Assembly: GCA_902761575.1 (NCBI GenBank)
Contig: CACWKU010000002.1
Span: forward strand, 5,578 to 69,577
Direction: 5' to 3'
DNA length: 64,000 nt
DNA from: an uncultured bacterium
GTDB lineage: Bacteria > Verrucomicrobiota > Kiritimatiellia > RFP12 > UBA3636
The position numbers and the translations under genes are program-made. The notes beneath the pieces were generated by a model. That model saw only the letters and a program-made list of their open reading frames with translations. It was not told where the DNA came from and did no database searches. Below are positions 1,891 to 39,030 of the stretch, piece after piece; position 1 is the stretch's first letter; the number at the start of each line of letters is the position of its first letter.

Positions 1891-4350
1891 GAGTCAGTCG
1901 ATGGAGAACACCGCTCGCGGCCTGGCCGCAGGCTGTCCGCCACTCCCTTCGCCGCCTCCGGGGCCGAGGCCCTCGCCGTCGGACACGCTGCCGTATTCGT
2001 AGCAGCCCATCGAGGGCGGATCGACGAAGGCGCTGCCCGCGAGGTCGAGGGCGACGCCGGTCGCCGTGCCGGCGCCTTTCGCGGGGGAATCCTGAGCAAT
2101 CGTGAAAATGCCCGCCGCGGCGTTCCCGAACTTGGGCTCGCCCGTCGCGCTGTGATCGCCGAGCTTGTCGGCCGGGACGTCGAAGAGGCAGTAGTCCACG
2201 CCGCCCGCGTAGCTCATGTCCACCGTCTTCTCCGCGGTGCCGGAGGCGTTGCCTGCGACGATGCAGTCAACCAGCGACGCTTTCTTGCCCGTGTCGTTCG
2301 CCGAATGGACTCCGCCGCCCGTTCCGCTCGCCCGGTTGCCGACGATGGTGGTGTTGCGCACCGTGCGGGCGTAGTTCTTGTAGAAGAGGTCCAGACCGAT
2401 GCCGCCGCCATTGCCGAACGCCCGGTTCCCGCAGACGAGGCACGCGTCGACGACGGCCTCGCCGCGGACCGTCTGGTCGCGGCACCCGATTCCGCCCCCG
2501 GCGCAGTAGGTGGCGCCCTTCATGCCCACCTGGTTCTGCACGACGGCACAGCGCTCGACGGTGCCCTTGTCGAGGAAGATCCCGCCGCCGAAGCACGAGT
2601 TCCCGGTGGCGCCGGCGAGGTTCTTGAGGACGCGGCACTCGACGAGGGAGCCGTCCGACAGATAGACGCCGCCGCCGTGATTGTATCCGCCGGACGTGAC
2701 GCCGCCCGTCAGCGTGACGCCGCGGAGGGTCGAGCCGCCGTCGAGGGTCGCGACGCGCTTGGTCGCCCGCTGCCGGATGGCCGTCGTCCGCCAGCCACTG
2801 CCGGCGACGGTGACGCCGCCGGTGATCGCCAGTTCCGCGTCGACGAGGTAGGTCCCTCCGGCGAGCGTCACGGTTCCGCCGGCGGCCGCCGCGGCGTCGA
2901 TCGCCGCCTGCAGGGCCGCCGTGTCGTCGTCTCCGCTGGGCTCGAGCGCGCCGGTCCCGGAGGCGGCGGTAGTGAAGCTGCCCTGCCGCCGGGTGCCGAG
3001 GCGGCCCGTCGCATTGTTGACGACGGACGCCGTCCAGTGGTAGGTGGTTCCCGGGGTCAGGCCCTTGATCCAGGCGACGAAGCGGTTGCGCTGCCCGGCG
3101 AGGACGATCCGCTCCGGCCCGAGGCTGTCCGCGTCGGTGCCGCAGGCGAAGGCGATGTCGCACGCGCTCGCCCCGGCGCCCGGCGAGGCGATCATGCCGG
3201 AGAGCGTGACGACCGTGGACGCGGGCTGGACGAAGAACTCCTCGAGGACGGGCGCGGCGGGGGCCGGCGCCGCGTAGGCGGCGCACTCGCGCACTCCGCG
3301 CAGGAGCGCGGACTTGCAGGCGTCGTCGAAGGTGCCGTCGATCCGATCCGCCGCATGCAGGAGCTTGTCGTAGCCCGCGAAGGAGACCGGGACGGAGGCC
3401 GCGAGCGCGATGGAGGCGCCAGCCGCCTCGGACTCGTTCGCGGGGTTCGCCGCAAGCGAGTCGATGCCCTGGCGGAAGACCTGCTTCGCGAAGGCGTCGA
3501 CGGAGAGTCCGCGGGCGGCGGCCGCCGACTCGAACGCCGCGTATTCGGCGGCGGAGAGCTTCACGGCGGCGGAGGGCTCGTCCGAATAGGTCTCCTTGAC
3601 GATCAGCGTCTCGTCCGCGTTCCAAGCCGCTTCCGCGGCGGACATCTCCGCGGCGTCGAGTCCGAACGCGGCGAGGACGGCGCGCGCCATCTGCCGATCG
3701 CCCGTCGGCGCCATGTGGACGCCGTCGACGGTCGCGGCGCGCCCGCCCATGTTGTATCCGGCCTGTTCGCTCAGGCGCGGATTGTCGATGTCGTTGATCC
3801 AGCCGCGCACGGCGTGGAAGGTGTCGGCATACGGAACGCCCTCGGCGGCGGCGATCTCCCTGACGCCGGCCGCGTACCGGCGGATTTCGCCGTTTTCCGC
3901 CTCGCCGGCCGCCGTGGTCGGCGAAAGAAGGACGGGAACGGCGCCGGCGGCCTTGGTCTTGGCGACCATCTGGAGCTCGTTGGCGTAGAACTTTTCATAC
4001 GTCGAGTTCGCGTCCTGGTACCAGACGTCGTTGACGCCCGCGCTGATGGTGACGACGTCGGGATCGTGCGCGAGGACGTCGGCGTCGAACCGCGCGAGCA
4101 TCGCGGCCGACTTGTCGCCCTTCACGCCCGCGCCGTACCAGGTCACGTCGATGCCGTTCGCGGCGAGGCCCCGGACGACGAGATTGACGTATCCGTGGCG
4201 ATTGGTCACGCCGTACCAGGTGATCGAGTCGCCCATGAAGACGAGCGTGTCGCCGGTCTTGACGACCTTCTCGCCGGCGACGGCGGCGAAGGGGGCGGCG
4301 ATGGCGGCTGCGCAGGCGAGCGCGGCAAGGAGCGGAGTCCGGGGTCTCAT
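1891..4350 (-). CDS. Secreted SGNH/GDSL hydrolase fused to Fn3-like and right-handed beta-helix domains. C-terminal tail ..PRAVFSID
   Basis: ORF 1894..4410(-). Likely start at MRPRTPLLAALACAAAIAAPFAA (ATG revcomp 4348-4350) with RBS GAAAGAACCTCCC. GDSIT SGNH motif, GTTYHWTASVVNNATG Fn3-like, beta-helix repeats, PPSMGCYEYG, ends RAVFSID. Confidence 0.8.
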
Positions 4351-7514: not shown

Positions 7515-10013
7515 CTAGTCGTCCCAGACGCTGCTCCACGCCACGCGCGACCATTCGGTCTCGCGGGCGGAGAAGAAGTTCGGCAGGCCGGGCGGGGTCA
7601 TGCGGAGGTAGGACCAGTCCGGCATGTCCGGGAAGACGTGGTACTTGGACGACTTCTTCTTCTTGTACTGGTAGTTGCCGCCGAAGTTGACGTAGGAGTC
7701 CAGGTTCTCGCCGTCGTAGTTGAAGCCGCCCTCGGCGGTCGAGGACATCCGCCAGCGGTACTCCGGCTCCTGCACGTCGTACAGGCAGAGGACCGTCCCG
7801 TTGAAGTGGAGCTTGACCTGCTTCCAGTCCTCGATCCACCGGAAGACGTTCTCGAACCCGCCCGAGTAGTTGTTGTCCTGGTGGAAGTCCTGCGACTCCT
7901 CCACGGGGATGGAGGGGATGATCCCGAGCATGCAGACGGCGTTGACCGTCGTCTCGCTGGCCCGCCCGCGGAAGTAGTGGATCCCGCCGGCCTTGTCGGT
8001 GAAGGACGCCTCGCCGGGGGCCTGCTCCTCCTCCTCCATGTGGGACTGGATGATGCGCGTGATACCCCCTCCGACGCGATCGGAGAGCTGCGCGCCGTCC
8101 GTCTGGTCGATCTCCAGCTTCGCGGCGGCGGCGTTCCAGACGTAGTCGCCGCTGACGCCGAGGCAGACCGAGAAGTTGGGGTCGTAGTGGTGCTGCTGCC
8201 AGAAGTTGGAGAGCGTGGTGACCGTGTCGCCGGCGAGCATCGCGCTGGGGACGTCCTCGGTGGAGGCCGCGTCCCGGGCTCCCTTCCCGTTCGTGTTGAA
8301 GTTGCCCTCGACGTAGAGGTGGCGGGCCGTGACGATGCTGACGTCGCTGCCCTGCAGGTCGGCTCCGTTCCGGATGCGGACGCAGGGGATGGGCCTGATC
8401 CGGCCCGTGCCCCCGTCGGCGCGGTCCGTGCCCGTCTCCGCGTCGTAGCGGCCGACCGGAACGAAGGCCGGCTCGTCCACGTCGACGTAGATGATCTTGT
8501 CCGGCCCCTCGTCCCCGCCGGGCGCCGCGTCGAGGATGCGCCGGAGCGGGGAGTTCCTCCGCAGGATCTCGTCCAGGTAGAGGTCGACGGGCTTCATCAC
8601 CCACTGGATGCGCCGGTCCACGAAGTAGTTGTCCGTCTGGATCGCCCCGCCGTTCTGGCCCTCCGAGCCACGGTTCGCGAGGTTGTAGGCGCCGGTCGTC
8701 ACCGTGTCCTTGTCGTAGACGGTGCAGACGTGCGCCGTGGTCCTCCTCTTGGACCGGGTCCAGTTGTCCTCGAAGTTCAGCCCCGGATTCACGACGTCGC
8801 CGTAGGACTGCGAGCTGACGTTCGTCGAGGCGATGGCCGGGACGGCCCTCTTGAGCAGGTGGGTGATGTCCTCGCCGCGGGCGCCGTCGGAGCCGACCCC
8901 GCGGTAGAGACTGTAGTTGCCGTCGGCGTCGACGTGCAGGTAGAGCGCCGCCTTCCGCGCCAGCTTCTGGCTTTCGGCCTCGGCGTTGTAGTCGGAGTCC
9001 CAGCGGGTCTTCGGCGGCTCGATCAGGTAGTGGTTGTCCTTCTCGGCGCCGATCGGCGGGGTGAGCTTGGTGACGCCGTTGTCGCCCGTCTGCACGGCGT
9101 TGCCGTAGTAGAGGGACGACTGGGCGACCCATTCCGCGTCGCCGAGGCTGGAGTCGACGTAGCGGGTCCCGTCCCAGATCTTCTTCGCCTTCTTCTGCCG
9201 GTCCTTCTCCTCCGTCCCGAGCTCGGCGTCGTCCCCGAAGCGGACCGTCGCCATGCGGTAGGCCCCGCGCGACTGGCCGTTGAGCACGACGTCGTAGTTC
9301 ATGGACCAGTCCCCGGTCGACTTGTCCACGTTGATCGAGAGGCCCCCGTCGTTGAAGTCGTCGAGCCCGGTGTTCTTGCGCTGGTGGAGGAAGCGCCCGA
9401 CGCAGGTGAGGTTCCGGTTGAAGTTGGCGATCTTCGTGACGTACATGGAGCCGTTGGAGTGGACCTTCCCGGTGAACGTCTGGCCCGGGTTGCCGGGGTT
9501 GGCCTCGAAGTCCCCCTCGTAGAACGCGCCGTACTCCCCCAGGGAGGTCCCCTGCGCGAGGATTGTCTGCTTGAGCGCGCAGGACACGCCGGAGAGGCGG
9601 TTGCGCGCGCCGGCGTAGACGGTCACGTACTGCGACGCGGAGCTGACGGTGCTGGCGGGGCCGCCGGAGTCGGTGCCGTCGCCCAGGACGACCTTCACGC
9701 GGAGCTCGTACTCGCCCGCGTCGACCGGCGTCGCGGGGGCGGCGATCGTGGCGTACTTCTCCCGGATCCCGGCGATCTTCTCGTTGTTGATGATGGCCTG
9801 GACCCGCTTGACGCCGTAGGCGAGCCCCGACTCCGCCACGACGAACGCGCGCTGCACGTCGAGGGTCCGGCGCGCGAGGCGCATCGAGCGGACGGAGAAC
9901 CGCGTGACCAGCGCCACGACGAGGCAGGTCGTGAACACCAGCACGAGGACCGCGGGGAGGACCACGCCCGCGCTGCGGAGCGATCGGGTTCCGGGATGGC
10001 GGCGGGCGGTCAT
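7515..10013 (-). CDS. Large membrane-anchored hypothetical protein (N-terminal TM helix), last gene of pseudopilin-like cluster. Possible giant minor pseudopilin or secretion-associated protein
   Basis: ORF 7515..10298(-). Likely start MTARRHPGTRSLRSAGVVLPAVLVLVFTTCLVVALV (ATG revcomp 10011-10013), directly abutting the stop of the upstream pilin-like gene (TAG 10017-10019). No recognisable catalytic motif. Confidence 0.5.
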   Translation of the reverse strand: MTARRHPGTRSLRSAGVVLPAVLVLVFTTCLVVALVTRFSVRSMRLARRTLDVQRAFVVAESGLAYGVKRVQAIINNEKIAGIREKYATIAAPATPVDAGEYELRVKVVLGDGTDSGGPASTVSSASQYVTVYAGARNRLSGVSCALKQTILAQGTSLGEYGAFYEGDFEANPGNPGQTFTGKVHSNGSMYVTKIANFNRNLTCVGRFLHQRKNTGLDDFNDGGLSINVDKSTGDWSMNYDVVLNGQSRGAYRMATVRFGDDAELGTEEKDRQKKAKKIWDGTRYVDSSLGDAEWVAQSSLYYGNAVQTGDNGVTKLTPPIGAEKDNHYLIEPPKTRWDSDYNAEAESQKLARKAALYLHVDADGNYSLYRGVGSDGARGEDITHLLKRAVPAIASTNVSSQSYGDVVNPGLNFEDNWTRSKRRTTAHVCTVYDKDTVTTGAYNLANRGSEGQNGGAIQTDNYFVDRRIQWVMKPVDLYLDEILRRNSPLRRILDAAPGGDEGPDKIIYVDVDEPAFVPVGRYDAETGTDRADGGTGRIRPIPCVRIRNGADLQGSDVSIVTARHLYVEGNFNTNGKGARDAASTEDVPSAMLAGDTVTTLSNFWQQHHYDPNFSVCLGVSGDYVWNAAAAKLEIDQTDGAQLSDRVGGGITRIIQSHMEEEEQAPGEASFTDKAGGIHYFRGRASETTVNAVCMLGIIPSIPVEESQDFHQDNNYSGGFENVFRWIEDWKQVKLHFNGTVLCLYDVQEPEYRWRMSSTAEGGFNYDGENLDSYVNFGGNYQYKKKKSSKYHVFPDMPDWSYLRMTPPGLPNFFSARETEWSRVAWSSVWDD

Positions 10014-10015
10014 GG

Positions 10016-10621
10016 CTAGAGCTTCCTCTTGAGGTTGCGGCAGGCGCCGATGACGACGACGTCCATGCCCTGGCGCCCGGGGCCGGTCGTGTCGCGCTCG
10101 GCCGATCCGATCGCCGGATCGCCGACGTGGGCGGCGAGGGCGACGGAAACGCCCGTCACGAGGCGGAACATCGGGATGCCGCTGTCCGCCGGCCCGACCC
10201 ATTCGCAGAGCGTGCGGGCCGGATCGTTCCCCTTTCCGTTCCTGCGATGGACGATCCTCGACTCGCGGACGGTCGGGCCCTCCTCGTAGCCGATCCATTC
10301 GGCGGTGTCCTCCTCGTCGCCGCTCGCCGCGGCCTCGAGCGCGGATTCGTCCGAGTAGAGGCGGACGCCGCGGTTGTCCGCGTCGACGAGCAGGCAGAAG
10401 TTGGCCTCGACGAGGTCGACGAAGGCGGCCTGCAGGACGCGGGCCTGGTTGTTGAACTCGACCTGCGAGCGGAGCGCGCGGCCCGCGTTCGAGAGGAAGA
10501 GGTAGAGCGAAAGGACGGCCGCGACGATGATCGAGCCCGCCGCAGACGCGATCAGCACCTCGGCGAGCGTGAAGCCGGCGCGCCGGCGCGTCGCGGCGCG
10601 GAGGGAGGCCGTCGGTTCCAT
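10016..10621 (-). CDS. Prepilin-type N-terminal cleavage/methylation domain protein (pseudopilin-like)
   Basis: N-terminus MEPTASLRAATRRRAGFTLAEVLIASAAGSIIVAAVLSLYLF matches the type IV pilin / T2SS pseudopilin N-methylation motif G-F-T-L-x-E followed by a hydrophobic helix. Confidence 0.8.
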   Translation of the reverse strand: MEPTASLRAATRRRAGFTLAEVLIASAAGSIIVAAVLSLYLFLSNAGRALRSQVEFNNQARVLQAAFVDLVEANFCLLVDADNRGVRLYSDESALEAAASGDEEDTAEWIGYEEGPTVRESRIVHRRNGKGNDPARTLCEWVGPADSGIPMFRLVTGVSVALAAHVGDPAIGSAERDTTGPGRQGMDVVVIGACRNLKRKL

Positions 10622-10634
10622 TTCCGCCCCCTCC

Positions 10635-11414
10635 TCACATGTACGAGAACGAGACGGCCTCGCTGTACAGCGAGATCCTGTAGTCCGTGCCGTTCGTCTC
10701 GGGGTTCGTCGTCCGGGCGAAGTTCACCATGATCGGCGTCCCGGGGTCGCGGGCGATGTAGGAGACGATCTTGTCGTTGGACACGTGCTTGTGCTCCTCG
10801 CCGAGCGAGATCTCCTGCGCCTGCTTCCCGCCCGGCTTCATGACGATCGTCACCGCCTCGAAGGAGGCGGGCATGCTCGCGAGCGTGGACTGCGTGTAGA
10901 CGGAGCCGTCCGTCGCGAGGGCGTAGAACATGACGGGGCGCTCGAAGTTGGGGTTGAGCTCCAGGTCCCCGGTGCTCAGGCTGCCCGACTCCGCGTAGGT
11001 CGAGTACTGGTTCGCGATCAGCCCGTGCAGCTCCTCGGAGCGCGTCCGGCCCCGGAACGTCCAGGTGCACTTGATGTCGACCATCGCGAACTCGGCGCCG
11101 TCCTCGACGACGTTGGTGATGGCCGTCCGGACCGTCCCCATGACGAGCCCCCGGGACGGATCCTTCGACATTGAGGCCAGCACGACCTGCCGGGCCGGAT
11201 AGAACTCCTCGGAGATGTTCTCGAAGGCGACGGCCTTGAGCTCCTCGTACCGGTTCAGGCACGCGCCCTGCGCGGCGATGCGCTGGGCCGTCGCCCGGGA
11301 GCTCTGCTCCACGACGGCGATCCCGCGGAAGGCGCAGGCGGACAGCAGCGCCACGAGCGCGCCGGCGACGGCGACCTCGATGAGGGTGAAGCCAGACGTA
11401 TTCTTCGCTTTCAT
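10635..11414 (-). CDS. Prepilin-type N-terminal cleavage/methylation domain protein (pseudopilin-like)
   Basis: Start MKAKNTSGFTLIEVAVAGALVALLSACAF (ATG revcomp 11412-11414, RBS GAGGAACCGA). Classic GFTLIEV prepilin motif. The ORF-track start at 11507 is probably an upstream alternative-codon artefact. Confidence 0.8.
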   Translation of the reverse strand: MKAKNTSGFTLIEVAVAGALVALLSACAFRGIAVVEQSSRATAQRIAAQGACLNRYEELKAVAFENISEEFYPARQVVLASMSKDPSRGLVMGTVRTAITNVVEDGAEFAMVDIKCTWTFRGRTRSEELHGLIANQYSTYAESGSLSTGDLELNPNFERPVMFYALATDGSVYTQSTLASMPASFEAVTIVMKPGGKQAQEISLGEEHKHVSNDKIVSYIARDPGTPIMVNFARTTNPETNGTDYRISLYSEAVSFSYM

Positions 11415-12326: not shown

Positions 12327-15300
12327 CTACAGGGACGGGGCGACGTCCGATTCGACGACGCGGTAGAACGCCGCGGGCTCGTTCTCGTCGAGGGCGATCG
12401 AAAGCTCGCCCGTTCCGGCGAGGAGGTCCGAGCCCTTCGTCCACGTCGCGACGTCGACGGCAAAATCGACCGCGAGGTCGGTCGTCTTCTCGAGCGCGTA
12501 CCAGCGGTCCGCCTTCGCCCCGGAGACGCCGACCCGGACCGTCGAGGCGCCGACCGAGATCGACGCGGGCTCCGGCGTCGCGGCGTCGCCGGCCACCGTC
12601 ATGGTGACCGTGCCGTCGCCGTTGTCCGTCACCCGGTAGGCGAGGCTGCCTCCGACGACGAGGGCGTGCCCGTTCGTCGCGAAGACGTAGTCGCCCGCGG
12701 CCGCCGGGCTCCAGCTCGCGTCCCAGAGGAGCTCGACCGGATCCGCGCCCGATGCGAGCGCGTCGGCGACCGTCGCGTATTCGGTCCCGCCTGCCCGCGC
12801 GAGGTTCGCGTCGAGCCCGTCGAAGCGGTACGCGCCGTCGAGGGAGACGACGTCGGTCGGACCGACGTAGCGGACGGTCGAGACGCCGGTCTGCCGCTCG
12901 GCCAGCGCGTACGTGCCGAGCGAGGTGCCGCCGACCGAGTAGGAGACCGTGTGCGCGGCGTCGTCGAGCGTCACCGTCACGGTCACGGCGGCGCTCACGT
13001 CCGCGACGACGGCGAGGTTCGTCGCCACCCCGGCCGCCGTCAGGACCGCGTAGCGGTTGGCGCCGTCCGCCCGGACGACCGTGATGCCCGCGCGCGAGCC
13101 CGTGTCGAACGGCTCGTCCGAGGGGTCGCCGAAGCGGAAGGTCGACGAGATCGTGACGACCGACGCCCGGGGCGCGGTCGTCGCCGCCGTGAAGGTCGCG
13201 TTGGAGACGGCGATCGCGCCGTCCGCGACCACGGCCTTGTCGCCCGACCACGCGCCCGTCTCTCCGAACGCCGACGCCGTCTCATGGATCCAGGCCGCGT
13301 TCACGTCGACCTTGATCGTGCCCTGCGCGAGCGTGACGCCCTTTGTGTAGGCGACGCCGTCGACCGTGAGCGAAACCGTCCCCTCGTAGGCGTTCCCCGC
13401 CGTCACGACGCCGGCGGGAACCGCGAACGACAGGGTCCCGTTCGCCGCGTCGATCGTGCCGGCGTAGCCGACGCCGCTGATCGTGAGCGCGGCCGACGCG
13501 ACCGCGCCCGCGGGGATCTCGCCCGTGAAGGCGACCGTGACGGCGCTGCCGTTGTAGTCCGTCCCCGGGCGCGCCGCGGGCTCGCCGAGCGCGATCGAGG
13601 GCGGAGGCGGCGTGGTGCCGAACTCGTAGCAGCCCATGGACGGCGGATTCGCGAAATCGCCCCCCATGAGGTCCTTCCCGATGCCGGAGTACGTCGCGCC
13701 CGCGCCCTTCGCCGGGGAGTCCGAGGCGAGCGTATAGTCGTCCGCGGCGGCGTCCGCGAACTTCGGGTCGCCGACAAGGCAGTGCGCGCCGACCTGCTCG
13801 CCCGACGTTTCGATCGTCACGCAGTCCGCGGCGTCGAAGAGGCAGTAGTCCACGTTCGTCGCGTGGTGCAGCTTCACATCGGGATTGCCGCCCACCGTGG
13901 TGTTGCCAGCGACAATGCAGTTGACCATCGTGAGCTTGCTGCTGTAGTCGCTGCCGACGCTCAGCGCGCCGCCTTCGGAAGACCGACCCTCGACGCCCGA
14001 CACGTTCCCCACGATCGTGGTGTTGCGGATCGTCACGGGGCTGCCGTAGTTCTTCAGCTCCATGCCGATGCCGCCGCCCTTGCTCGCGCCCCAGGCGTAG
14101 GCCGCCCGGTTCCCGAGGACCAGGCAGGCGTCGATCGTGACCGGGCCGGAGTAGTCGCCGTTCACGCCGATGCCGGCGCCCTTGCCGCCGTTGCCGTCGT
14201 TCGTGTTGAAGGCGACGATCGAGTGGTCGATCGTGCCCTGCTTGATGAAGACGCCGCCGCCGTAGCCGCCCTTGCCCGAAACCGTGTTGTTGCTGATGCA
14301 GCACCAGGAGACCGTGCCGTTCTCGACGTACACGCCGGCTCCGTGCACGTACTGGTCGGCCAGCGTTCCGCCCGTCGCCGTCAGGTCCTTGAGCGTCGCC
14401 TCCCCGGCGAGCGTCGCGACGCGCCCGGTGCCGACCTGCCGGATGATCGTTCGCTCCGGGCCCTGGCCCTCGAGCGTGACGCCGTTCGTGACCATGAGCT
14501 GCGCGTCGATGCGGAAGACGCCGCTGCCGAGCGTGACGGTCCCGTGCGTCGGCACGGCCGCGTCGATCGCCGCCTGGATGGCGTTGCGGTCGGCGGCGCC
14601 GGTCGCGTCGCCGCTCGGCGCGATCGCGCCGGTCGGATCGATGTGCGTTCCGCCGCCGCCACCGCCGCCGCCCGTCTTGGGGATGACCACGTCCTTCGTC
14701 TGCGTCGCGAACGGCGCGTCGAAGGCCGCCGTGTAGCGGCCCGTGCCGTCCCCGTCCGCGGTCGGCGCCTGGACGACCGCGTAGGCCGTCGTCGCGGTCT
14801 GCGTCTTCCGGTGGGCGGAATTCCCCGTGCAGACCGCGGTCGCCGTGCAGGTCGCGTTGTCCGCGGACCAGACGTAGGACGGCGCGCCCCACGTGTGGGT
14901 ATGCGGCGTTCCCGAGACGTCCGTCGCCTCGCCGGCGGTAAGGAACGAGGCCGAGGACTGGTCGTACTCGGCCTTCACCCAGTCGGCGGAAGAGACCGCG
15001 TCGCGGAGGCGGAACTCGTCGAAGAGCCCGGTGAAGTGCCCCTGCACGACGTCCTTGTCCTTCGCGCCGAAGATCAGCTTGTTGTCGGAGTCCTGCACGG
15101 CCGAGATGGACGCGTCCGCGAGCTTCACGCCGTTGGCGTAGGTCGTGAGCGTCGTGCCGTTGAAGACGGCGGCGAGATGGACCCAGCTGTTTTCCGCAGA
15201 AGGCACCGTGCTGGAAACGGCCGTAAGCGAACCTGCGTATCCGTTGAGGGTCGTGTAGTTGGGAAGCGCGAGCTCCCAGTCCGGCGCATAGCCGCCGCCG

Positions 15301-16997
15301 CGGTTGCGGCTTGCGAAGCGCGCGAGGCCGTCCACCGTCGTGAGCGCCGTCATCTTGACCCAGGCGGACATCGTGAAGTCGCCGCCGACGTCGAGGAGCG
15401 TCGAGTCGGCGACCTTCAGCATGGACTGGCCGTTGTACGACGCGGCGTTCGCGGAATTGACGCGCGCCTTGCCGAAGACGCCGTCGGCCGCGACCTGCTG
15501 CGTCGCCGCGGCGGCGCCGATGGGCTCGGCGTCGAGGCCGTTGACGGAATCCGCGACCGTGCCGTTCGCCTCGGCCATGTGCCAGACGCCGACGTAGTCC
15601 GCCTTCCAGGTCCAGCGCGGCTCGACCGCGTCCGCGGGCTCGCCGCCGTAGTACATCGTGAACGAGGCGCCCTGCGAGAGCGCGGGGACCTTGACCCACA
15701 CGAGCGAGGCGCCGTCCGGGTTCCACTGCTCGATCTCGTAGGAGAGGGAATCGCCGGAGCCGTCCGCGAAGCGGAGCTCGCTTCCGCTCGCGGAGTCCGC
15801 CATGTCGGCGTAGCTGAAGCCCGAGGGCGAGCCGGCGGCGAGCCGCACCGCGACCGGGAAGTCGGCGAGCGTCGACGACCCCGCGTAGCCCGAGACCGTG
15901 AACTCGACCTGCTTCGAGAAGACGGACGTATCGACGGCCTCCACCGGCTCCGTCGGCAGGTCGGCCGCGGTCGCGGCGGGCAGCTCGTGCACCGCCGCGA
16001 GCATGGCGTAGTTCGCGATGGCGGGCACGCTGTCGTGCGTGGACATCGCCCGCCCGCAGTCGATCATCTGGTCGTACGTGACGAGGGAGGCGAGCGGCGT
16101 CGCCGAGAGCTTCACCGTCGCGCCGCTCGTGGCCGCGACCCGGACGGGGTTCTGCTTCATCAGCTCCGCGCCCCGGTAGAAGAGATCCCGGTGGTACTCG
16201 CCGAGCGACTTGCCGGCCCGGCCCGCCGCCGCCTTGACGGCCATGTATTCGGCCTCGGTGATCTGCACGCTCGGATGGAACTCGATGAACGGGGCGTTCG
16301 CGTTCCACGCCGCCTCGGCGTTGGCCAGCTCGGTCGCGTCGAACCCGAACGCCTTCAGCACCTCGCGGGCGAGGATGCGGTTGCCGACCACGTCCATGTG
16401 GGTGCCGTCCTTGGTCGCCTTGTACCCGAACTGGTTGATGACCGGATTGGCGGGGTCGTCGACGCATTCCCGGAAGGCCTCGTAGGTCTGGGCGTAGGGG
16501 ATGTTCCGCGCCTGTGCGATGCCCTTGACGGCCGCCGCGTAGTCGCAGACGTTCTGCTTGAATCCCTCGCCGTTGACGCCCGTCGGCGAGAGCAGCACCG
16601 GCTTGATCCCATTGGCGATCGCCATGTCCGCCATCGCGGCGACGTCGTTCGGCGTGCTGTTCGTGTTGACGGGCCAGTTGCTTCCGCAGTCGTTCACGCC
16701 CGCGAAGATGGTGCAGACGTCCGGGTCCTTGGCGACGACGTCGTTCTGGAAGCGGTTCTTCATCTGGACGGCGGTCTGGCCGCTGATGCCGACGCCGTAC
16801 CACGTCACGTCGATGCCGTTCGCGGCAAGGCCCTGGACGACCAGGCGCAGGTAGCCGTCGACCGTATCCTTGCCGAACTGGGTGATCGAGTCGCCCATGA
16901 AGACGAGGGTGTCGCCGTTCTTGATCACCTTCTCGCCGCCGTGGGCGGCGAGGGCGAACGCGGCCAGGAAAAGCGGGAGGACGTGTCTTGCTTTCAT
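12327..16997 (-). CDS. Giant secreted multidomain protein: SGNH hydrolase, DUF2341, LamG, Gly8 linker, right-handed beta-helix, large C-terminal region shared with the 26490-31727 paralog. Tail ..AFYRVVESDVAPSL
   Basis: ORF 12327..16997(-), 1556 aa. MKARHVLPLFLAAFALAAHG signal; VFMGDSITQFG; SGYAGSSTLADFPVAVRL..LVWVKVP (DUF2341); YVGVWHM..LFDEFRLRD (LamG); GGGGGGGG; beta-helix repeats; PPSMGCYEFG. Confidence 0.85.
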   Translation of the reverse strand: MKARHVLPLFLAAFALAAHGGEKVIKNGDTLVFMGDSITQFGKDTVDGYLRLVVQGLAANGIDVTWYGVGISGQTAVQMKNRFQNDVVAKDPDVCTIFAGVNDCGSNWPVNTNSTPNDVAAMADMAIANGIKPVLLSPTGVNGEGFKQNVCDYAAAVKGIAQARNIPYAQTYEAFRECVDDPANPVINQFGYKATKDGTHMDVVGNRILAREVLKAFGFDATELANAEAAWNANAPFIEFHPSVQITEAEYMAVKAAAGRAGKSLGEYHRDLFYRGAELMKQNPVRVAATSGATVKLSATPLASLVTYDQMIDCGRAMSTHDSVPAIANYAMLAAVHELPAATAADLPTEPVEAVDTSVFSKQVEFTVSGYAGSSTLADFPVAVRLAAGSPSGFSYADMADSASGSELRFADGSGDSLSYEIEQWNPDGASLVWVKVPALSQGASFTMYYGGEPADAVEPRWTWKADYVGVWHMAEANGTVADSVNGLDAEPIGAAAATQQVAADGVFGKARVNSANAASYNGQSMLKVADSTLLDVGGDFTMSAWVKMTALTTVDGLARFASRNRGGGYAPDWELALPNYTTLNGYAGSLTAVSSTVPSAENSWVHLAAVFNGTTLTTYANGVKLADASISAVQDSDNKLIFGAKDKDVVQGHFTGLFDEFRLRDAVSSADWVKAEYDQSSASFLTAGEATDVSGTPHTHTWGAPSYVWSADNATCTATAVCTGNSAHRKTQTATTAYAVVQAPTADGDGTGRYTAAFDAPFATQTKDVVIPKTGGGGGGGGTHIDPTGAIAPSGDATGAADRNAIQAAIDAAVPTHGTVTLGSGVFRIDAQLMVTNGVTLEGQGPERTIIRQVGTGRVATLAGEATLKDLTATGGTLADQYVHGAGVYVENGTVSWCCISNNTVSGKGGYGGGVFIKQGTIDHSIVAFNTNDGNGGKGAGIGVNGDYSGPVTIDACLVLGNRAAYAWGASKGGGIGMELKNYGSPVTIRNTTIVGNVSGVEGRSSEGGALSVGSDYSSKLTMVNCIVAGNTTVGGNPDVKLHHATNVDYCLFDAADCVTIETSGEQVGAHCLVGDPKFADAAADDYTLASDSPAKGAGATYSGIGKDLMGGDFANPPSMGCYEFGTTPPPPSIALGEPAARPGTDYNGSAVTVAFTGEIPAGAVASAALTISGVGYAGTIDAANGTLSFAVPAGVVTAGNAYEGTVSLTVDGVAYTKGVTLAQGTIKVDVNAAWIHETASAFGETGAWSGDKAVVADGAIAVSNATFTAATTAPRASVVTISSTFRFGDPSDEPFDTGSRAGITVVRADGANRYAVLTAAGVATNLAVVADVSAAVTVTVTLDDAAHTVSYSVGGTSLGTYALAERQTGVSTVRYVGPTDVVSLDGAYRFDGLDANLARAGGTEYATVADALASGADPVELLWDASWSPAAAGDYVFATNGHALVVGGSLAYRVTDNGDGTVTMTVAGDAATPEPASISVGASTVRVGVSGAKADRWYALEKTTDLAVDFAVDVATWTKGSDLLAGTGELSIALDENEPAAFYRVVESDVAPSL

Positions 16998-17033: not shown

Positions 17034-19208
17034 TCAATCGACGAGAAACGCGACGCGGGGGCGCCTGGCGCCGCCCGTGACGTCGGTCGCGGGCCCGGCG
17101 GAGAGGAACGACGCCGAGGCCTGGTCGTACTCGGCCTTCACCCAGTCGGCGGAAGAGACCGCGTCCCGGAGGCGGAACTCGTCGAAGAGCCCGATGAAGT
17201 GCCCCTGCCAGCAGTCCTTGTCGTAGGCGCCGAAGACGAGCTTGTCGTTGGTGTCCTGCACCGCGGCGATCGTCTGCTCGAAGACCTTCGCGCCGTTGGC
17301 GTACGCCGTCAGCGTCGTTCCGTCGAACACGCCGGCGACGTGCACCCACGCGTCCTGCGCGCCCGGAATCGCGCCCGAGACCGCGGTCTTCGAGCCGGAA
17401 TAGCCGTTCAGCGTGTCGTACCCCGTGATCGCGAGCTGCCAGTCCGGCGTGTCGTAGACCGCCGCCACGTAGCGGTTGCGGCTCGCGATGCGCGCGATGC
17501 CGTCGCCCGGGGTCGCGCCGGTCATCTTGACCCAGCCGGAGAAGGTGAAGTCATCGCCGAGGTCGAGGATCGTCGAATCGCCGACCTCCAGCATCGACTG
17601 TCCGGTATATGCATTGAGGCCCGGCACCCCGTTGATCCGCGCGTTGCCGAAGACGCCCTCCGCCGCGGCCTGCCGGGAGGCGGAGTTGCCCTTCGGAACG
17701 GCGGTCATCCCGTTCGCGGAATCCGCGACCGCGCCGCCGTCCTCGGCCATGTGCCAGACGCCGACGTAGTCCGCCTTCCAGGTCCAGCGCGGCTCGACCG
17801 CGTCCGCGGGCGCGCCGCCGTAGTACATCGTGAACGTCGTCCCCTGCGAAAGCGCGGGGAGCTTGACCCAGACGAGCGAGGCTCCGTTCGGGTCCCACTG
17901 CTCGACCTCGTACGAGAGCGAGCGCCCGGCGGCGTCGGCGAAGCGGAGCTCGCCGCCGCTCGACGGGTCGGCCATGTCGGCGTAGCGGAAGCCCGAGGGC
18001 GAATCGGCGGCGAGCCGCACCGCGACCGGGAAGTCGGCGAGCGCCGACGACCCCGCGTAACCCGAGACCGTGAAGACGACCTGCTTGGCGAACGCGGACC
18101 TGTCGACGGTCCGGACCGGCTCCTTCGGCAGATCGGCCTCCGACGCGGCGGGAAGCTCGTGCACCGCGGCGAGCACGGCGGCATCGAGGACGCCCGGCAG
18201 GCTGCCGAGCTCGGAACGGATGTCCGTCTCGTTCGCACGGAGCGCGCGGCCGCAGTCGAGCGCCGCGTCGTAGGTGGGGAACCCGATGCGCGCCGACAGG
18301 GAGAACTCCACGTCCGCCCCGTCCGTCTCGGACACCTCCGCAGGCTGCTGCGACAACCGCTCGATGCCGCGGAAGAACAGGTCCCGGTGGAAGTCGGCCA
18401 GGGACCTTCCGGCCCGGGCCGCGGCCGCCTTCACGGCCCGGTACTCGGCGGCGGTGATCCGCACGCTCGGGCGGGCCTGGTAGAACGGCTCGATCTCGTT
18501 CCACGCCGCCGCCGCCTTCGCCAGCTCCTCGGCCGAGTCGAAGCCGAGCGCCTTCAGCATCTCGATCGCGATGATGCGGTTCCCGACGACGTCCATGTGC
18601 AGGCTGTCGACGGTGGCGCGGATGGGGAACCCCTTGTCCGTCTTCCCGATGACGGGATTCACGGGATCCTCCACGTACGCCCGGAACGCCTCGTGGGTCG
18701 TTCCGTACGGGACGTTCCGCGCCTGCGCGATGGCCTTGACCGCCGCCGCGTAGTCGAGGATGCTCTGCGGGAAGGACTCGAGCGAGCTGCCCGTCGGGGA
18801 GCACAGCACCGGCGTGATCCCCGCCGCGATCGCCATGTCCGCCATCGCGGCGACGTCGTCCGGCGAGCTGGCCGCGTTGTTCGGCCACCCCTGCGCGCAG
18901 TCGTTCACGCCGGCGAGGATCGTGACGACATCCGGGTTCTTGGCGATGACGTCGTTCTGGAAGCGGGCCCGCATCTGCGCGGCGGTGTTGCCCGCGATGC
19001 CGACGCCGTGCCAGGTCACGCGGACGCCGTTCGTCGCGAGGCCGCGCGCGACGAGCGGCAGGTAGCCGGCGGCGCTGTCCTTGCCGTACTGCGTGATCGA
19101 GTCGCCCATGAAGACGAGCGTGTCGCCGTCGTGGATCGCCTTCTCGCCGCCGCTCGCGGAGAGCGCGGCGAAAGCCAGGGGGAGCAGGAATGCGCGTGTC
19201 GTTCTCAT
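17034..19208 (-). CDS. Secreted SGNH hydrolase, DUF2341, LamG protein. C-terminal tail ..RPRVAFLVD
   Basis: ORF 17034..19208(-). MRTTRAFLLPLAFAALSASG signal, VFMGDSITQYG, DUF2341 and LamG blocks homologous to the 12327 and 24275 genes. Confidence 0.85.
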   Translation of the reverse strand: MRTTRAFLLPLAFAALSASGGEKAIHDGDTLVFMGDSITQYGKDSAAGYLPLVARGLATNGVRVTWHGVGIAGNTAAQMRARFQNDVIAKNPDVVTILAGVNDCAQGWPNNAASSPDDVAAMADMAIAAGITPVLCSPTGSSLESFPQSILDYAAAVKAIAQARNVPYGTTHEAFRAYVEDPVNPVIGKTDKGFPIRATVDSLHMDVVGNRIIAIEMLKALGFDSAEELAKAAAAWNEIEPFYQARPSVRITAAEYRAVKAAAARAGRSLADFHRDLFFRGIERLSQQPAEVSETDGADVEFSLSARIGFPTYDAALDCGRALRANETDIRSELGSLPGVLDAAVLAAVHELPAASEADLPKEPVRTVDRSAFAKQVVFTVSGYAGSSALADFPVAVRLAADSPSGFRYADMADPSSGGELRFADAAGRSLSYEVEQWDPNGASLVWVKLPALSQGTTFTMYYGGAPADAVEPRWTWKADYVGVWHMAEDGGAVADSANGMTAVPKGNSASRQAAAEGVFGNARINGVPGLNAYTGQSMLEVGDSTILDLGDDFTFSGWVKMTGATPGDGIARIASRNRYVAAVYDTPDWQLAITGYDTLNGYSGSKTAVSGAIPGAQDAWVHVAGVFDGTTLTAYANGAKVFEQTIAAVQDTNDKLVFGAYDKDCWQGHFIGLFDEFRLRDAVSSADWVKAEYDQASASFLSAGPATDVTGGARRPRVAFLVD

Positions 19209-19230: not shown

Positions 19231-21000
19231 TCAGTCGATGCAGAACACCACGCGGGGCCGCGGCGCGGTGATCGTCAGCGTCCGACGAAGGACGTAGATC
19301 GTGTTCTGGTGGTCCACCTCCACCCGGGCCTCGTAGGTCCCGGCCTGCACCGGCGGGCCGGAGAGCTTCGTCGAGCCCCGGTAGTACTCGAGCATGCCGA
19401 GCGACGAGGACGTGAGCGCGGCGAAGTCGGTCCCGACGAGCGTCGCCGCGAGCGGCGTTCCGTCGTAGGCCTTGGTCGTCTCGCCGCCGATGGAGAACGT
19501 CGGCGTGCCGGCCGTGCAGTTCGCGTTCGTGCAGGTCGCGGTCAGCGTGTCGCCGGACGCCGTCAGTTTCCAGCCGTGCTCGTGCGGATCCTCCGACTGC
19601 GACTGCAGCTTGAAGCTGTCGGTCCGGAACGCGCCCGCCGCGTTGCCCTCGGCGTCGAAGAAGTTCACCGGATCCGTGTTCGCGAAGCCGTACCGGACGG
19701 CGAGCGGCTCGGGGAAGGTCGGGCAGGAGACGGCGAGCGTGTCCGCGTCGACGATGCGGACCGTCCCGTCGAAGAACTTGGTCGTCCCGTAGTAGTCCCC
19801 GCCGACCTGGAACCCCCGCAGCGCCTGGCCGTCGCCGCTCGTGATCGCCGTGTGCGTGTCGAAATGGACGAGGATCTCGCTCGCGTTGCCGGGGTTCACC
19901 TCCGAGCGGAGATAGACCGGGCCCTCCGGGTAGAGGCCCGGCTCGCCGTAGACGTACTTGCGCGCGAATTCGCTCAGGCGCCTGCCGAGCTCCGGCTTCT
20001 TCGGCGGGTGGATGTCCGTGAGGTCGCCGATGTCGAGCGTCGGGACAACGTGGACGCCCTGCTCCTGCCGGCCCACCCAGTTCTGCGAGTCGCGCACGTC
20101 GCACCACTGCCCGTAGGCGCCGTAGAACGGAAGCTGCGCGACGAGGAACGGCATGTCCGCGTCGTTCCAGAGCGCGCGCCAGTTCCGGACCAGGGCCTGC
20201 AGCTTGAAGCGGTAGTTGTAGCCGAACCCGAACATGCCGTCCGACTCGCCCTGGTACCAGAGCACGCCCTTGACCGGAAGCGGCGGGATGGGCTCGAGGT
20301 TGTTCAGGATCATCTTCGAGTAATGGTCCTTCGCGCTCGTGCAGTCGGGAAGCCACTCGTCGATCAGCGAGCCGTCGACCGCCGCCGTGACGATGCCGAC
20401 GGGGACGCCCAGCTTCCCCTGCAGCTCCTTGGCGAAGAAGAATCCCATCGCCGAGCACTTCCCCGCCGTCGCGGACGACGCGACCTGCCAGGCGTTCTGG
20501 TTGAGCTGCCACTCGAAGTGGTTCTCGGTCGCCTCGATGAAGCGGATCGTCGGATAGTCGGCGTCCTGGAGCCACGCGGCCGCGTCGGCGAAGCGCTCGA
20601 TCGGATAGTAGGCGTTGGACTGCCCGCTCGCGAGCCACACCTCGCCGACCAGGATGTTCGTGGCCGTGAGCGTCGTCGTGCCGTCCGTCGCCGTGAGCGT
20701 GTACGGGCCGCCCGCCTCCATCGCGGGGAACTCGACGCGCCAGCGGGCCTCGCCGTCCGAGGCGTAGGGGCTTTCGAGATCCGCGGTCGCCGAAAGCGTC
20801 CGCCCGGCGAACGTGACCGTGACGGTCCTGCCCTGGATCGCGGCGCCGGAGATCGGCAGCGTGACGCCGCGCTGGAGCACGGCGTTGCTGTCGTAGTACT
20901 GGTTGACGCGGAACTTGGGGATCGTGTAGGCGGCCTGCGCGGCCGGCGCCAGTCCCGCGGCGATTGCGGCGATTGCGGCGAAGCGTTCGATGGCGTTCAT
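19231..21000 (-). CDS. Sialate O-acetylesterase-like carbohydrate esterase (SASA family) with C-terminal Ig-like region. Tail ..PRPRVVFCID
   Basis: ORF 19231..21009(-); ATG start MNAIERFAAIAAIAAGLAPAAQA (signal). The ORF-track first codon is TTG. GEVWLASGQSNAY and VLWYQGESD motifs are typical of sialic-acid 9-O-acetylesterases. Confidence 0.7.
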   Translation of the reverse strand: MNAIERFAAIAAIAAGLAPAAQAAYTIPKFRVNQYYDSNAVLQRGVTLPISGAAIQGRTVTVTFAGRTLSATADLESPYASDGEARWRVEFPAMEAGGPYTLTATDGTTTLTATNILVGEVWLASGQSNAYYPIERFADAAAWLQDADYPTIRFIEATENHFEWQLNQNAWQVASSATAGKCSAMGFFFAKELQGKLGVPVGIVTAAVDGSLIDEWLPDCTSAKDHYSKMILNNLEPIPPLPVKGVLWYQGESDGMFGFGYNYRFKLQALVRNWRALWNDADMPFLVAQLPFYGAYGQWCDVRDSQNWVGRQEQGVHVVPTLDIGDLTDIHPPKKPELGRRLSEFARKYVYGEPGLYPEGPVYLRSEVNPGNASEILVHFDTHTAITSGDGQALRGFQVGGDYYGTTKFFDGTVRIVDADTLAVSCPTFPEPLAVRYGFANTDPVNFFDAEGNAAGAFRTDSFKLQSQSEDPHEHGWKLTASGDTLTATCTNANCTAGTPTFSIGGETTKAYDGTPLAATLVGTDFAALTSSSLGMLEYYRGSTKLSGPPVQAGTYEARVEVDHQNTIYVLRRTLTITAPRPRVVFCID

Positions 21001-22421: not shown

Positions 22422-23222
22422 ATGAAGACCAACGAGCTGTCCGTCTTCCACCACCACGTCCTCGAGTTCGCCAAGGCGCGCGGAATCCCGCTCGCGGAGG
22501 CCCTCGCCGCGACGCGGGCCATGGGGTTCGACGGACTCGTGACCGAACGGGCGCTCCTCTCGGACGGCGACGCCCTGAAGCGCCTCCTCGGCGCGAACGG
22601 CCTGCGCATCGTTTCGGTCTACGACTGGATCGACTTCGTCCACGACGACCCCGCGGCCTGCGCGCGCCGGACCGAGGAGCTCCTGCGGACCGCAAAGGAG
22701 TTCGGCGCTGCCAACGTCCTCGTCCTTCCTGGATGCTTCCGCGAGGGCGACGACGAGGCCGCCGGACTCGACCGGATCTGCGGCGGCCTCTCGGACGCCT
22801 GCCGCCTGGCGACGTCCCTCGGGATCGACGTCACGATCGAGGACTTCGGCCTTCCCGGCTCGCCCAACGGCACCATCGCCGGCTGCGCGGCGATCCTCGA
22901 GCGCGTGCCGGGGCTCGGCTTCGCCTTCGACACGGGCAACTTCGCCTGCTACGGCGAGGACCCGCACGACGCCTGGCCACTCCTCCGCGACCGCGTCGTC
23001 TTCGTCCACCTGAAGGACCGCGCGTCCGGGCCGCACGGACTCGACGTCTCCGCCGAGGTGCCGGTCGGCGACGGCGCCCTCGACCTCGGCCGCCTCGTCC
23101 GCCGCATGCGCGCCGACGGCTACGCCGGCGGCTTCGTCGCGGAGCACTTCGGCCATCCCGACCAGGAGGCGGCCATGCGCCGCTCGGCGGACTTCTTCCG
23201 CGGGATTGTCAGTCGATGCTGA
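22422..23222 (+). CDS. Sugar phosphate isomerase/epimerase (xylose-isomerase-like TIM barrel)
   Basis: 266 aa; ..AANVLVLPG.., FAFDTGNF, VVFVHLKD.. are motifs typical of AP-endonuclease-2/xylose-isomerase-like TIM barrel proteins. Confidence 0.7.
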   Translation: MKTNELSVFHHHVLEFAKARGIPLAEALAATRAMGFDGLVTERALLSDGDALKRLLGANGLRIVSVYDWIDFVHDDPAACARRTEELLRTAKEFGAANVLVLPGCFREGDDEAAGLDRICGGLSDACRLATSLGIDVTIEDFGLPGSPNGTIAGCAAILERVPGLGFAFDTGNFACYGEDPHDAWPLLRDRVVFVHLKDRASGPHGLDVSAEVPVGDGALDLGRLVRRMRADGYAGGFVAEHFGHPDQEAAMRRSADFFRGIVSRC

Positions 23223-38231: not shown

Positions 38232-38429
38232 TGGCGTTTTTCTCCTGGTGCGTCGCCGTCGGGCGCATTCCCTCGGCGACGGCGACCATACTAGCACGCG
38301 CCGTCTTCCGTCCGAAACTACACAACCGTGTAGCACCCGTTTTCCGGCCCGCGAAGCGCCCCCGGAAGCGAGGCTCCGCCGCCCCTCGCGGCATCCGTGC
38401 GCGTGGCGGGGTGAGACACTCCTCCACGA

Positions 38430-38456
38430 AAAATGTCGCCTGCCAGGCGACATTTT
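38430..38456. repeat. 27-bp perfect palindrome AAAATGTCGCCTG-C-CAGGCGACATTTT in the divergent intergenic region, ~92 nt upstream of the RhuM ATG
   Basis: Both 13-nt arms are exact reverse complements; A/T-rich ends. Confidence 0.8.
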
Positions 38457-38547
38457 CCCCGGGGCGTTGTGGCAGTCTATCCCCCGTTCCGCGGGAACAT
38501 CCCGCGATACATCCCCAAACCACCCCCCAAGCAGAAAGGATTCCCCA

Positions 38548-39030
38548 ATGCCAGAGCCCAATGGTTGTGAACCGGAAGAAGTCTCGCCGCCGCAAAAGAA
38601 CGAGATCGTCGTCTACCAGCCGGACGAAACGCTCCGGCTTGACGTTCGTCTCGAAAACGAGACGGTCTGGCTGACGCAGAGCCAGATGGGAACGTTGTTC
38701 GGATGCACCACGAGAAACGTGCGCCTCCACCTGGAAAACATCTACGCATGCGGCGAGTTGACGCCCGAGGCAACTAGGAAGGATTTCTTCCTGGTTCGCC
38801 AGGAAGGCGTCCGGCAAGTCCGAAGGATGGTGACGTGCTACAACCTCGACGCCATCATTTCCGTCGGCTACCGCGTGAATTCCGTGCTTGGAGTCCGGTT
38901 CCGCCAGTGGGCGACGACCGTTCTGAAGGAATACCTGATCGGCGCCTCCCTCAAGGACCTCGGCAAGAAGTGCTTCGGCTTCACAAAAATGGATCCCGCG
39001 GAAATCCCGGGCCTGAAGGCGCGGCTCTGA
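38548..39030 (+). CDS. RhuM-family protein (virulence RhuM family, commonly in mobile/defense islands)
   Basis: 160 aa; RBS AAAGGA then ATG 38548. ..ETVWLTQSQMGTLFGCTTRNVRLHLENIYACGEL..VRRMVTCYNLDAIISVGYRVNSVLGVRFRQWATTVLKEYLI closely follows the conserved RhuM core (..ETVWLSQ..M..LF..HYNLDAIISVGYRV.S..G.QFRQWAT.VLKEY). Confidence 0.8.
   Translation: MPEPNGCEPEEVSPPQKNEIVVYQPDETLRLDVRLENETVWLTQSQMGTLFGCTTRNVRLHLENIYACGELTPEATRKDFFLVRQEGVRQVRRMVTCYNLDAIISVGYRVNSVLGVRFRQWATTVLKEYLIGASLKDLGKKCFGFTKMDPAEIPGLKARL

Follow-up and report, generated by a model that had tools for sequence, protein, structure and literature searches.

How Gram-negative bacteria choose folded periplasmic enzymes for export or surface retention is poorly understood outside a few systems, and the gap is greatest where the machinery resembles type II secretion and in the Planctomycetes–Verrucomicrobia–Chlamydiae (PVC) phyla, which have been little studied. 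In TcpF of Vibrio cholerae and CofJ of enterotoxigenic Escherichia coli (ETEC), the export signal is a disordered terminal segment that a minor pilin at the tip of a type IVb pilus (TcpB and CofB, respectively) recognises, the minor pilin being encoded in the same operon (PMC9565799, PMC10120004, PMC6048534). Sortase-type signals (PEP-CTERM/exosortase, LPXTG/sortase, GlyGly-CTERM/rhombosortase, MYXO-CTERM and others; NCBIfam models, D. Haft) consist of three parts, namely signature motif, transmembrane helix (about 20 residues) and basic cluster, and occur on tens of proteins per genome. The C-terminal domain of the type IX secretion system (T9SS) is a folded element of 70–100 residues that belongs to a Bacteroidota machinery. 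Here we analyse 64,000 nucleotides (the window) from an uncultured Kiritimatiellia bacterium (GenBank assembly GCA_902761575.1, contig CACWKU010000002.1, positions 5,578–69,577), in which five secreted enzymes of one glycan-degradation locus end in a short common tail. This tail is a lineage-specific short linear motif on Sec-exported accessory enzymes and a previously undescribed C-terminal tag, akin to known C-terminal targeting and docking peptides. Like the sortase-type signals, which often stand directly after 'choice-of-anchor' domains, it is common to exoproteins with unrelated catalytic domains, but it has only 8–10 residues, lacks a hydrophobic helix, ends in Asp and is found on about five families only. 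Like the T9SS domain, it marks secreted glycan-degrading enzymes, and in some homologs of one host, the phosphodiester glycosidase NAGPA, a small C-terminal beta-sandwich domain stands in its place; unlike the T9SS domain, the tail is a peptide.

The locus occupies positions 1–39,000 on the minus strand, and the tail is encoded at the ends of the following five of its genes:

1894–4350, minus strand: 818 residues; signal peptide, SGNH esterase, PL6-lyase-like beta-helix ending ..PPSMGCYE, 25-residue Gly/Pro-rich linker; tail P-R-A-V-F-S-I-D plus TGA at 1894–1920 (..ARPRAVFSID; stop codon 1894–1896)
17034–19208, minus strand: 724 residues; SGNH, DUF2341 and LamG domains, then linker; tail P-R-V-A-F-L-V-D plus TGA at 17034–17060 (..RRPRVAFLVD), the most diverged of the five
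19231–21000, minus strand: 589 residues; sialate O-acetylesterase-like SASA and Ig-like domain, linker 'AP'; tail P-R-V-V-F-C-I-D plus TGA at 19231–19257 (..PRPRVVFCID)
23209–24222, minus strand: 337 residues; NAGPA phosphodiester glycosidase ending ..NQLLFV, 8-residue Pro-rich linker; tail P-R-V-V-F-S-I-D plus TGA at 23209–23235 (..KPPRVVFSID)
24275–26422, minus strand: 715 residues; SGNH, DUF2341 and LamG domains, paralog of 17034; tail S-R-A-V-F-S-I-D plus TGA at 24275–24301 (..GRSRAVFSID)

Translation of all five genes confirmed an initial annotation of the window, which had reported near-identical C-terminal tails on five minus-strand genes, each followed directly by TGA; the common stop codon is unremarkable, because the window has 68% G+C. 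The same annotation placed the tails on exported proteins, and all five N termini indeed combine a basic n-region, a hydrophobic h-region and an AxA-like site, as is typical of Sec signal peptides. A degenerate DNA pattern for R-[AV]-V-F-x-I-D-stop (CGNGYNGTNTTYWSNATHGAYTGA) matched the window four times, compared with a mean of 0.00 in 100 dinucleotide shuffles, none of which contained it. In the 11 largest window proteins, the motif R.[VMAIL][FL].[IV][DE] had no internal occurrence; it was found at the five C termini only. The consensus from 34 distinct tails is [K/R]-[R/K/P]-P-R-V-[V/M/A]-F-x-[I/V]-D-COOH, with V at −5 in 28/34, F at −3 in 30/34, I or V at −1 in 33/34 and a terminal D in 33/34, position −2 being free. 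Its layout is a doubly positive basic patch, a hydrophobic strand and a negative terminal Asp, built from residues of high beta propensity.

Next, we compared the hosts of the tail. In all-versus-all BLAST, 17034 and 24275 are full-length paralogs (48% identity), 1894 has the N-terminal SGNH part alone in common with them (37–40% identity), and 19231 (SASA) and 23209 (NAGPA) are unrelated to the other tailed proteins. Apart from the SGNH paralogy, the sole likeness among the five is a separate match of 12–16 residues at the very end. The differing architectures reported initially stand in so far as four unrelated domains precede the tail (beta-helix, LamG, the Ig-like domain after SASA, and NAGPA), but the five enzymes are not independent of one another, given the paralogy. 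Likewise, the Gly/Pro-rich linker described there is present in four genes, where it is rich in Gly, Pro and Ala, whereas that of 19231 has two residues. In a third SGNH–DUF2341–LamG paralog, 12327, colinearity with 17034 and 24275 lasts until '..ASFLxAGxATDVxG', and more domains follow exactly where these two have tails.

Homologs show the tail as an addition to complete proteins. NAGPA orthologs down to ~66% identity have ..NQLLFV, a variable linker of 8–10 residues and a tail (PRVVFSID, QRVMFTID, PRVMFRID, PRVAFYVD, RSLAFYVD and others); homologs at or below 65% identity end directly behind LLFV, and two of them (P0039 and P0051) have a 78-residue C-terminal domain in place of the short tail. 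The SASA family follows the same pattern, its distant homologs ending before the tail, and SASA–beta-helix fusion proteins end in GCYE, a linker and RRPRVMFTVD, KKCGVGLFID or RTKVIFYVD. The end of a 1663-residue BD-FAE/beta-helix protein of the window (33826–33860, minus strand; ..HLFAVGIGTIDE, then stop) is loosely like the variant ..KKCGVGLFID. Together, the BLAST comparison and the tail-less homologs rule out, for four contexts, that the tail is the end of a duplicated shared domain, the artefact against which the initial annotation had warned. Across orthologs at 56–97% identity the tail pattern is kept while the linker has diverged, and in NAGPA ortholog pairs at 60–85% identity the tail is ~0.5 identical, compared with 0.25–0.36 for the linker. 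By these alignments, the tail is constrained in its pattern, less than the catalytic domain and more than the linker.

Structure prediction covered two of the hosts. AlphaFold2 modelled the NAGPA protein confidently to the last domain residue and gave linker and tail as low-confidence coil (predicted local distance difference test score, pLDDT, falling from 72 to 53); the model of the beta-helix half of 1894 was likewise confident as far as the domain reaches, and linker and tail were coil as well, at pLDDT 33–35. The tail is thus predicted not to pack on the domain that carries it. The alternation of V, F and I/V behind a basic patch and before a terminal Asp suggests a free strand-forming peptide.

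The distribution of the tail is narrow. A strict DNA pattern, run over one genome per species (185,579 species), gave 72 stretches, of which six were real tails after a reading-frame check; all six belong to orthologs of window genes in three related rumen metagenome-assembled genomes (MAGs; RUG13889, RGIG1497 and SRR873595_bin.42), and the other stretches were short chance open reading frames (ORFs) or unrelated families. Viral contigs, the noise control for the pattern scan, gave 5 chance matches. A metagenome scan with a codon-biased pattern (120 stretches listed) yielded, among the matches listed, at least 11 true-context stretches with 13 tails, on the SGNH–LamG, NAGPA and GCYE beta-helix families only, and the 69 ORFs scanned in 14 related loci for a loose form of the motif had no further tails. 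The genome-wide enrichment beyond the paralog cluster that the initial annotation called for was therefore largely missing: the scans returned the enzyme families of the window from a few related rumen Kiritimatiellae. The tail is locus- and lineage-restricted, with no sign of a proteome-wide signal. Relatives at 60–64% G+C have xFYVD on three host families and relatives at 69% G+C have VF[S/C/T]ID; such lineage 'dialects' are suggestive in that they would fit a shared reader, a signal confounded by shared modules and by 17034 orthologs that keep their own flavour. In a local test, a 10-column tail profile reached at most 18 bits, or E ~1e3 at a database size of 5.8 billion proteins, so profile searches cannot find the motif, which is also why no library has one like it.

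Several look-alikes were rejected as unrelated: an Acidobacteriaceae family of 330–360 residues ending ..GKPRVVFTID (L014, L024, L065, L082), a high-G+C soil family ending ..AMNGYRAVFDID (L103, L112, L154, L177, L187, L207), a Bacteroidales lipoprotein ending ..GTPIRAVFSID (..YYGTPIRAVFSID; L083), a TonB-dependent receptor ending ..YARAVFQID and a Verrucomicrobiales pseudopilin ending ..LRAVFSID. Look-alike endings in other phyla are probably ordinary last strands, and they are useful negative controls for motif searches.

We favour, at a probability of roughly 40%, the reading that the tail is a free strand-forming peptide that acts in trans and docks, exports or retains the accessory enzymes of the locus on a shared partner. 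Borne by a flexible linker, rich in P, G and A, that follows the final folded domain of SGNH- or sialate-type O-acetylesterases and of a phosphodiester glycosidase, the tail would add as a beta-strand to this partner. Through strand addition, the locus enzymes would pass the outer membrane as a group or stay together on the cell surface. Action in trans is what we infer, as is the partner, for which the only concrete candidate in the DNA is a pseudopilin module of the same operon, made up of two prepilin-type proteins and a large PilX_N/HpsA-like protein:

10635–11414, minus strand: pseudopilin-like gene, 259 residues; N terminus MKAKNTSGFTLIEVAV.. (..GFTLIE); prepilin motif 16.0 bits, TIGR02532 cutoff 16.3
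10016–10621, minus strand: second pseudopilin gene, 201 residues; prepilin-type N-terminal cleavage/methylation domain, TIGR02532 20.9 (cutoff 16.3), PF07963 25.7 (cutoff 21.2)
7515–10013, minus strand: 832-residue protein with an N-terminal hydrophobic segment; weak PilX_N and HpsA-like matches, both below cutoff

The module lies between 12327 and 1894 on the same strand as the tailed genes, and in a related locus (L111) a tailed SGNH–LamG gene stands ~1.2 kb upstream of a pseudopilin ortholog, also on the same strand. The 832-residue protein may be a large minor-pilin-like protein; PDB sequence searches of three unannotated proteins returned a weak geopilin-like N terminus only. The presence of three pilin-type genes (7515–11414, minus strand) inside a glycan-degradation operon is an unusual association, and may point to pseudopilus-linked enzyme export or display. 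More specifically, the tail could be a transferable linear signal at the C terminus, for export or display, that a locus-encoded pseudopilus resembling a type II secretion system (T2SS) or type IV pilus would read in PVC bacteria; this proposal is a long shot. If it were true, no signal of this type on a substrate would have been defined by sequence before outside type IVb pili, and the glycan-utilisation locus would have its own 'address label' for accessory enzymes. To our knowledge, no linear signal is known for substrate recognition by the T2SS, on which the tail would then offer a direct handle.

A number of observations weigh against docking on a shared partner, or against the pseudopilin module as that partner. 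The pseudopilin link is drawn from co-location in one lineage only, and no pseudopilin genes were seen in the fetched flanks of five related loci (L088, L213, L214, L084 and L086). Few families are tailed, so that dedicated machinery seems costly, and the tail is dispensable, since the close orthologs P0021, P0034 and P0073 lack it. In two relatives at 60–64% G+C (L084 and L086) the tailed NAGPA gene stands among unrelated, untailed genes; the tail accompanies its host when that gene is found in other surroundings. With 33 and 18 sequences, the alignments behind the AlphaFold2 models were shallow, and a fold-back in cis may have been missed. Whereas the TcpF and CofJ signals are N-terminal, serve one substrate per system and have a key Tyr, the tail is C-terminal, would serve at least five substrates and has a different motif. 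Last, alignment puts the tail on the strand with which GCYE beta-helix proteins ordinarily end, and so it may be a modified structural element.

This last point touches the origin of the tail. Most GCYE homologs end in GCYE, 3–4 residues and an 8-residue strand (SGYVIRLR, TGFTMIFR, RGSMFMVR, PGTMFRLQ), and MAFFT places PRAVFSID, PRVMFTVD and TKVIFYVD in the columns of SGYVIRLR, RGSMFMVR, PGTMFRLQ and GTLLILR, with the G/P linker as an insertion. Strand and tail are alike in position, length and alternating hydrophobic pattern; the ordinary strand follows GCYE after those 3–4 residues and ends in R, K, Q or H, whereas the tail has a linker of 8–35 residues, a D end and a P-R basic patch, and also occurs on proteins other than beta-helices. 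The choice-of-anchor Q model NF041518 matches the paralog 54009 (26.5 bits, cutoff 25, E 5.5e-6); the C terminus of 1894 has no match to it at E≤1, and has ..PPSMGCYE and aligns with the family. On the beta-helix, the tail stands after GCYE, where curated choice-of-anchor Q domains precede anchors; GCYE precedes the tail in one of the five tailed genes only. In L214, two beta-helix proteins have a near-identical GCYE–linker–tail module. A LamG protein next to the window has an ending of its own:

12592–15108 of L210, left of the window and running off position 1: 838-residue CHB_HEX_C/DUF2341/LamG protein ending ..ATRPQSAGAVISVR (..AGAVISVR, then stop)

Its L088 ortholog ends ..SDRKGTVIAVE, with E rather than R as the last residue, and both endings are at the position homologous to the 17034 tail; by its sequence, the end of the 838-residue protein looks like a diverged sixth tail. 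Judging from these endings, the tail probably evolved from an ordinary terminal strand that gained a long linker, the P-R patch and an Asp at its end; copies of it would later have been placed on NAGPA and SASA. Separately, five internal beta-helix domains of the locus end in ..PPS[MI]G[CA]YE and pass directly into P/G linkers, without a terminal strand of their own:

12327–16997, minus strand: one such domain
26490–31727, minus strand: two such domains
33826–38817, minus strand: two such domains

Their number equals that of the tailed enzymes, which may be a coincidence or may mean that these domains are acceptor sites for the tails.

Should the terminal strand of the GCYE beta-helix or LamG domain (G-x-Φ-x-Φ-x-R-COOH) merely have been displaced by linker growth and recombined between neighbours, the tail would be a structural leftover that folds back in cis or has no specific role. 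We regard this as a serious possibility, albeit an unlikely one. It would account for the MAFFT columns, for the endings of the 838-residue paralog and its ortholog at the 17034-tail position, for the near-identical L214 modules and for the tail-less close orthologs, but not for tails on NAGPA and on the SASA Ig-like domain, which have no homologous acceptor and whose distant homologs are complete without a tail. Moreover, neither AlphaFold2 model docks the tail in cis, linkers of 8–35 residues are unsuited to a capping strand, and F(−3), I/V(−1) and D(0) are kept across orthologs despite the drift of the linker. Quite unlikely is that the tails bind each other, as an antiparallel beta-zipper that pairs the basic patch with the terminal Asp and carboxylate and would bundle the enzymes, or bind the outer membrane as a small amphipathic anchor, with Arg and Lys on lipopolysaccharide phosphates and V-F-I in the lipid, which would retain the enzymes at the surface. 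The charge layout, the high beta propensity of V, V/M, F and I/V, the predicted freedom and flexibility of the tail and the lack of a receptor gene consistently linked across loci would all suit such binding; a stable membrane anchor of eight residues, however, would be very short, endings of two flavours (..ID and ..VD) occur together in one genome, and we know of no natural enzyme-bundling beta-tail. That the conserved element lies in the DNA or RNA at the gene 3′ ends (a terminator, regulator site or recombination site), with the peptide as by-product, has next to no chance. The tails of 19231 and 23209 are identical at 22/24 bases, but high third-position identity is expected where G+C at third positions exceeds 0.9, and the tails differ synonymously (Ser TCC vs AGC, Arg CGA vs CGC, Val GTG vs GTC, Asp GAC vs GAT), so their conservation is at the protein level. 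The DNA 3′ of the five stop codons is unrelated, and orthologs swap amino acids while the physicochemical pattern stays; a DNA-level repeat or regulatory element is ruled out by the synonymous differences together with the unrelated downstream DNA.

A general, proteome-wide sorting signal with a sortase-like or protease partner, a sibling of PEP-CTERM, LPXTG, GlyGly-CTERM and the T9SS domain, is decidedly improbable. The tag is conserved, sits on signal-peptide proteins with differing domains and, on the beta-helix, seems to follow a choice-of-anchor-type domain. Neither the whole proteins nor their C-terminal 99–139 residues, scanned against NCBIfam and Pfam at E≤1, matched a known sorting-signal model, which upholds the earlier placement of the tail outside the four classes just named: the PEP motif is absent from the last 40 residues of all five tailed proteins, with no match to NCBIfam PEP-CTERM models at E≤1, and T9SS models of the TIGR04183/TIGR04131 type did not match, the tail being 8–10 residues after a disordered linker. 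However, its hydrophobic stretch has 3–5 residues (V-V-F-x-I) before the Asp end and no transmembrane helix; without a membrane-spanning segment, it cannot act like PEP-CTERM, LPXTG or GlyGly-CTERM, whose sortases are membrane-embedded, and no sortase-like gene (exosortase, sortase or rhombosortase) was found in the 64-kb window and its flanks. The strict tail in three related MAGs only, on orthologs of window genes, the restriction of true-context metagenome tails, among the matches listed, to the same families, and the 69-ORF scan that added none speak against it as well. A search of the literature on sorting or secretion signals in Kiritimatiellae found nothing relevant. The sorting or secretion signal first proposed thus stands as a real, strictly C-terminal addition behind non-homologous domains on signal-peptide proteins, with a pattern kept in orthologs, but without a transmembrane segment or genome-wide use. 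Tail-specific proteases and PDZ domains read free C-terminal strands (Prc/Tsp; DegS with the YxF-COOH of outer membrane proteins, OMPs), and the Asp-ended strand, predicted to be free, could shield its host from such a periplasmic protease, mark it for one or report export to a PDZ sensor. This is highly improbable: known PDZ and tail-specific-protease ligands end in a hydrophobic residue, not Asp, no PDZ or Ctp/Prc protease gene was found in the window, and the restriction to these enzymes would be left unexplained.

The initial annotation had named two further tail classes, neither of which held up. Homolog endings identify LLILR as the strand with which GCYE (choice-of-anchor Q) beta-helix proteins usually end, and AFYRVVESD is the last strand of a rare C-terminal domain of 78 residues. 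This domain, the one that takes the place of the tail in the NAGPA homologs P0039 and P0051, was found in 30 among 1.84 billion representative proteins, always at the extreme C terminus, in proteins of 279–2456 residues, and is a candidate lineage-specific anchoring domain. The endings in the window are:

54009–54044, minus strand: LLILR ending, ..DIGCYESAGILPTLLILR, then stop
62774–62800, minus strand: LLILR ending, ..AAGCYEVKAGTLLILR, then stop
12330–12569, minus strand: 78–80-residue C-terminal domain ending AFYRVVESD (1556-residue protein)
26493–26730, minus strand: 78–80-residue C-terminal domain ending AFYQIRESD (1745-residue protein)

On the DNA around the tails, the NAGPA gene 23209 (minus strand) overlaps at its 3′ end, by the 14 bases 23209–23222, with a convergent sugar-phosphate isomerase-like gene (22422–23222, plus strand), and its last four tail codons are thus read on the other strand too. 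The long plus-strand ORFs 26–1069 and 1073–2002 are antisense shadows of a minus-strand LamG/beta-helix gene, since it is the opposite strand of related genes to which their translations correspond; ORF 1073–2002, which overlaps the 1894 tail region, was accordingly rejected as a gene.

The window is 100% identical, scaffold gaps aside, to the cattle-rumen metagenome scaffold STEW19-1 scaffold_894. Its closest species-level genomes are the rumen MAGs RUG13889, Kiritimatiellae bacterium RGIG1497 and uncultured Verrucomicrobia bacterium SRR873595_bin.42, and one homolog is named as from Kiritimatiellae. Besides the five tailed enzymes, the glycan-degradation locus encodes a GH89-type NAGLU, an AraC-type regulator and very large proteins of several domains each (beta-helix, DUF2341, LamG and CHB_HEX_C among them). 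It is adjoined by a defence island (39599–49897, plus strand) with a Z1-domain/helicase protein (MzaC-like, 2.4e-30), a DUF4420 protein (MzaD-like, weak), a DUF1156 adenine methylase (HmaB, 1467 bits) and a DUF499 AAA+ ATPase (HmaC, 948 bits).

The general importance of the tail is limited by its narrow distribution. A tag of 8–10 residues on a flexible linker is nevertheless small enough for direct testing and, if transferable, would offer a compact means of displaying or co-localising enzymes. Even as a modified structural strand, it would still show how such endings arise and spread between adjacent genes.

Finally, docking of the tail on a shared partner can be set beside systems built on terminal peptides or modules. 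In the dockerin–cohesin cellulosome the idea is alike, a C-terminal module after a flexible linker bringing co-substrate enzymes onto a scaffold; dockerins, however, are Ca-binding domains of ~70 residues with cohesin receptors, and no such domains are present here. In PDZ and tetratricopeptide repeat (TPR) ligands and in the OMP beta-signal, as is generally known, a free C-terminal strand or carboxylate is recognized by strand addition, as it would be in the tail, and the ending ..[I/V]-D-COOH recalls the ..V-D-COOH of the Hsp70/Hsp90 EEVD-COOH that TPR clamps bind. However, the last residue is hydrophobic or aromatic in PDZ ligands and in the beta-signal, and EEVD is cytosolic, whereas the tail ends in Asp: D, and not the F, Y or W of the beta-signal, ends 33/34 tails, and the hosts are soluble enzymes. 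No PDZ, TPR or TonB-type domain was found in the locus. SpyTag-like isopeptide tags and TonB-box-like strands are further conceivable comparisons. The likeness to TcpF and CofJ extends to several features. Signal and tail are both short terminal peptides, disordered (here by prediction), on Sec-exported folded proteins. The genes of TcpF and CofJ share an operon with pilin-type genes; pilin-type genes lie among the tailed genes of the window and near one in L111, but none was seen in the fetched flanks of the five other loci. The TcpF signal is lineage-specific and transferable between proteins, and the tail, in its turn, stands behind unrelated domains.

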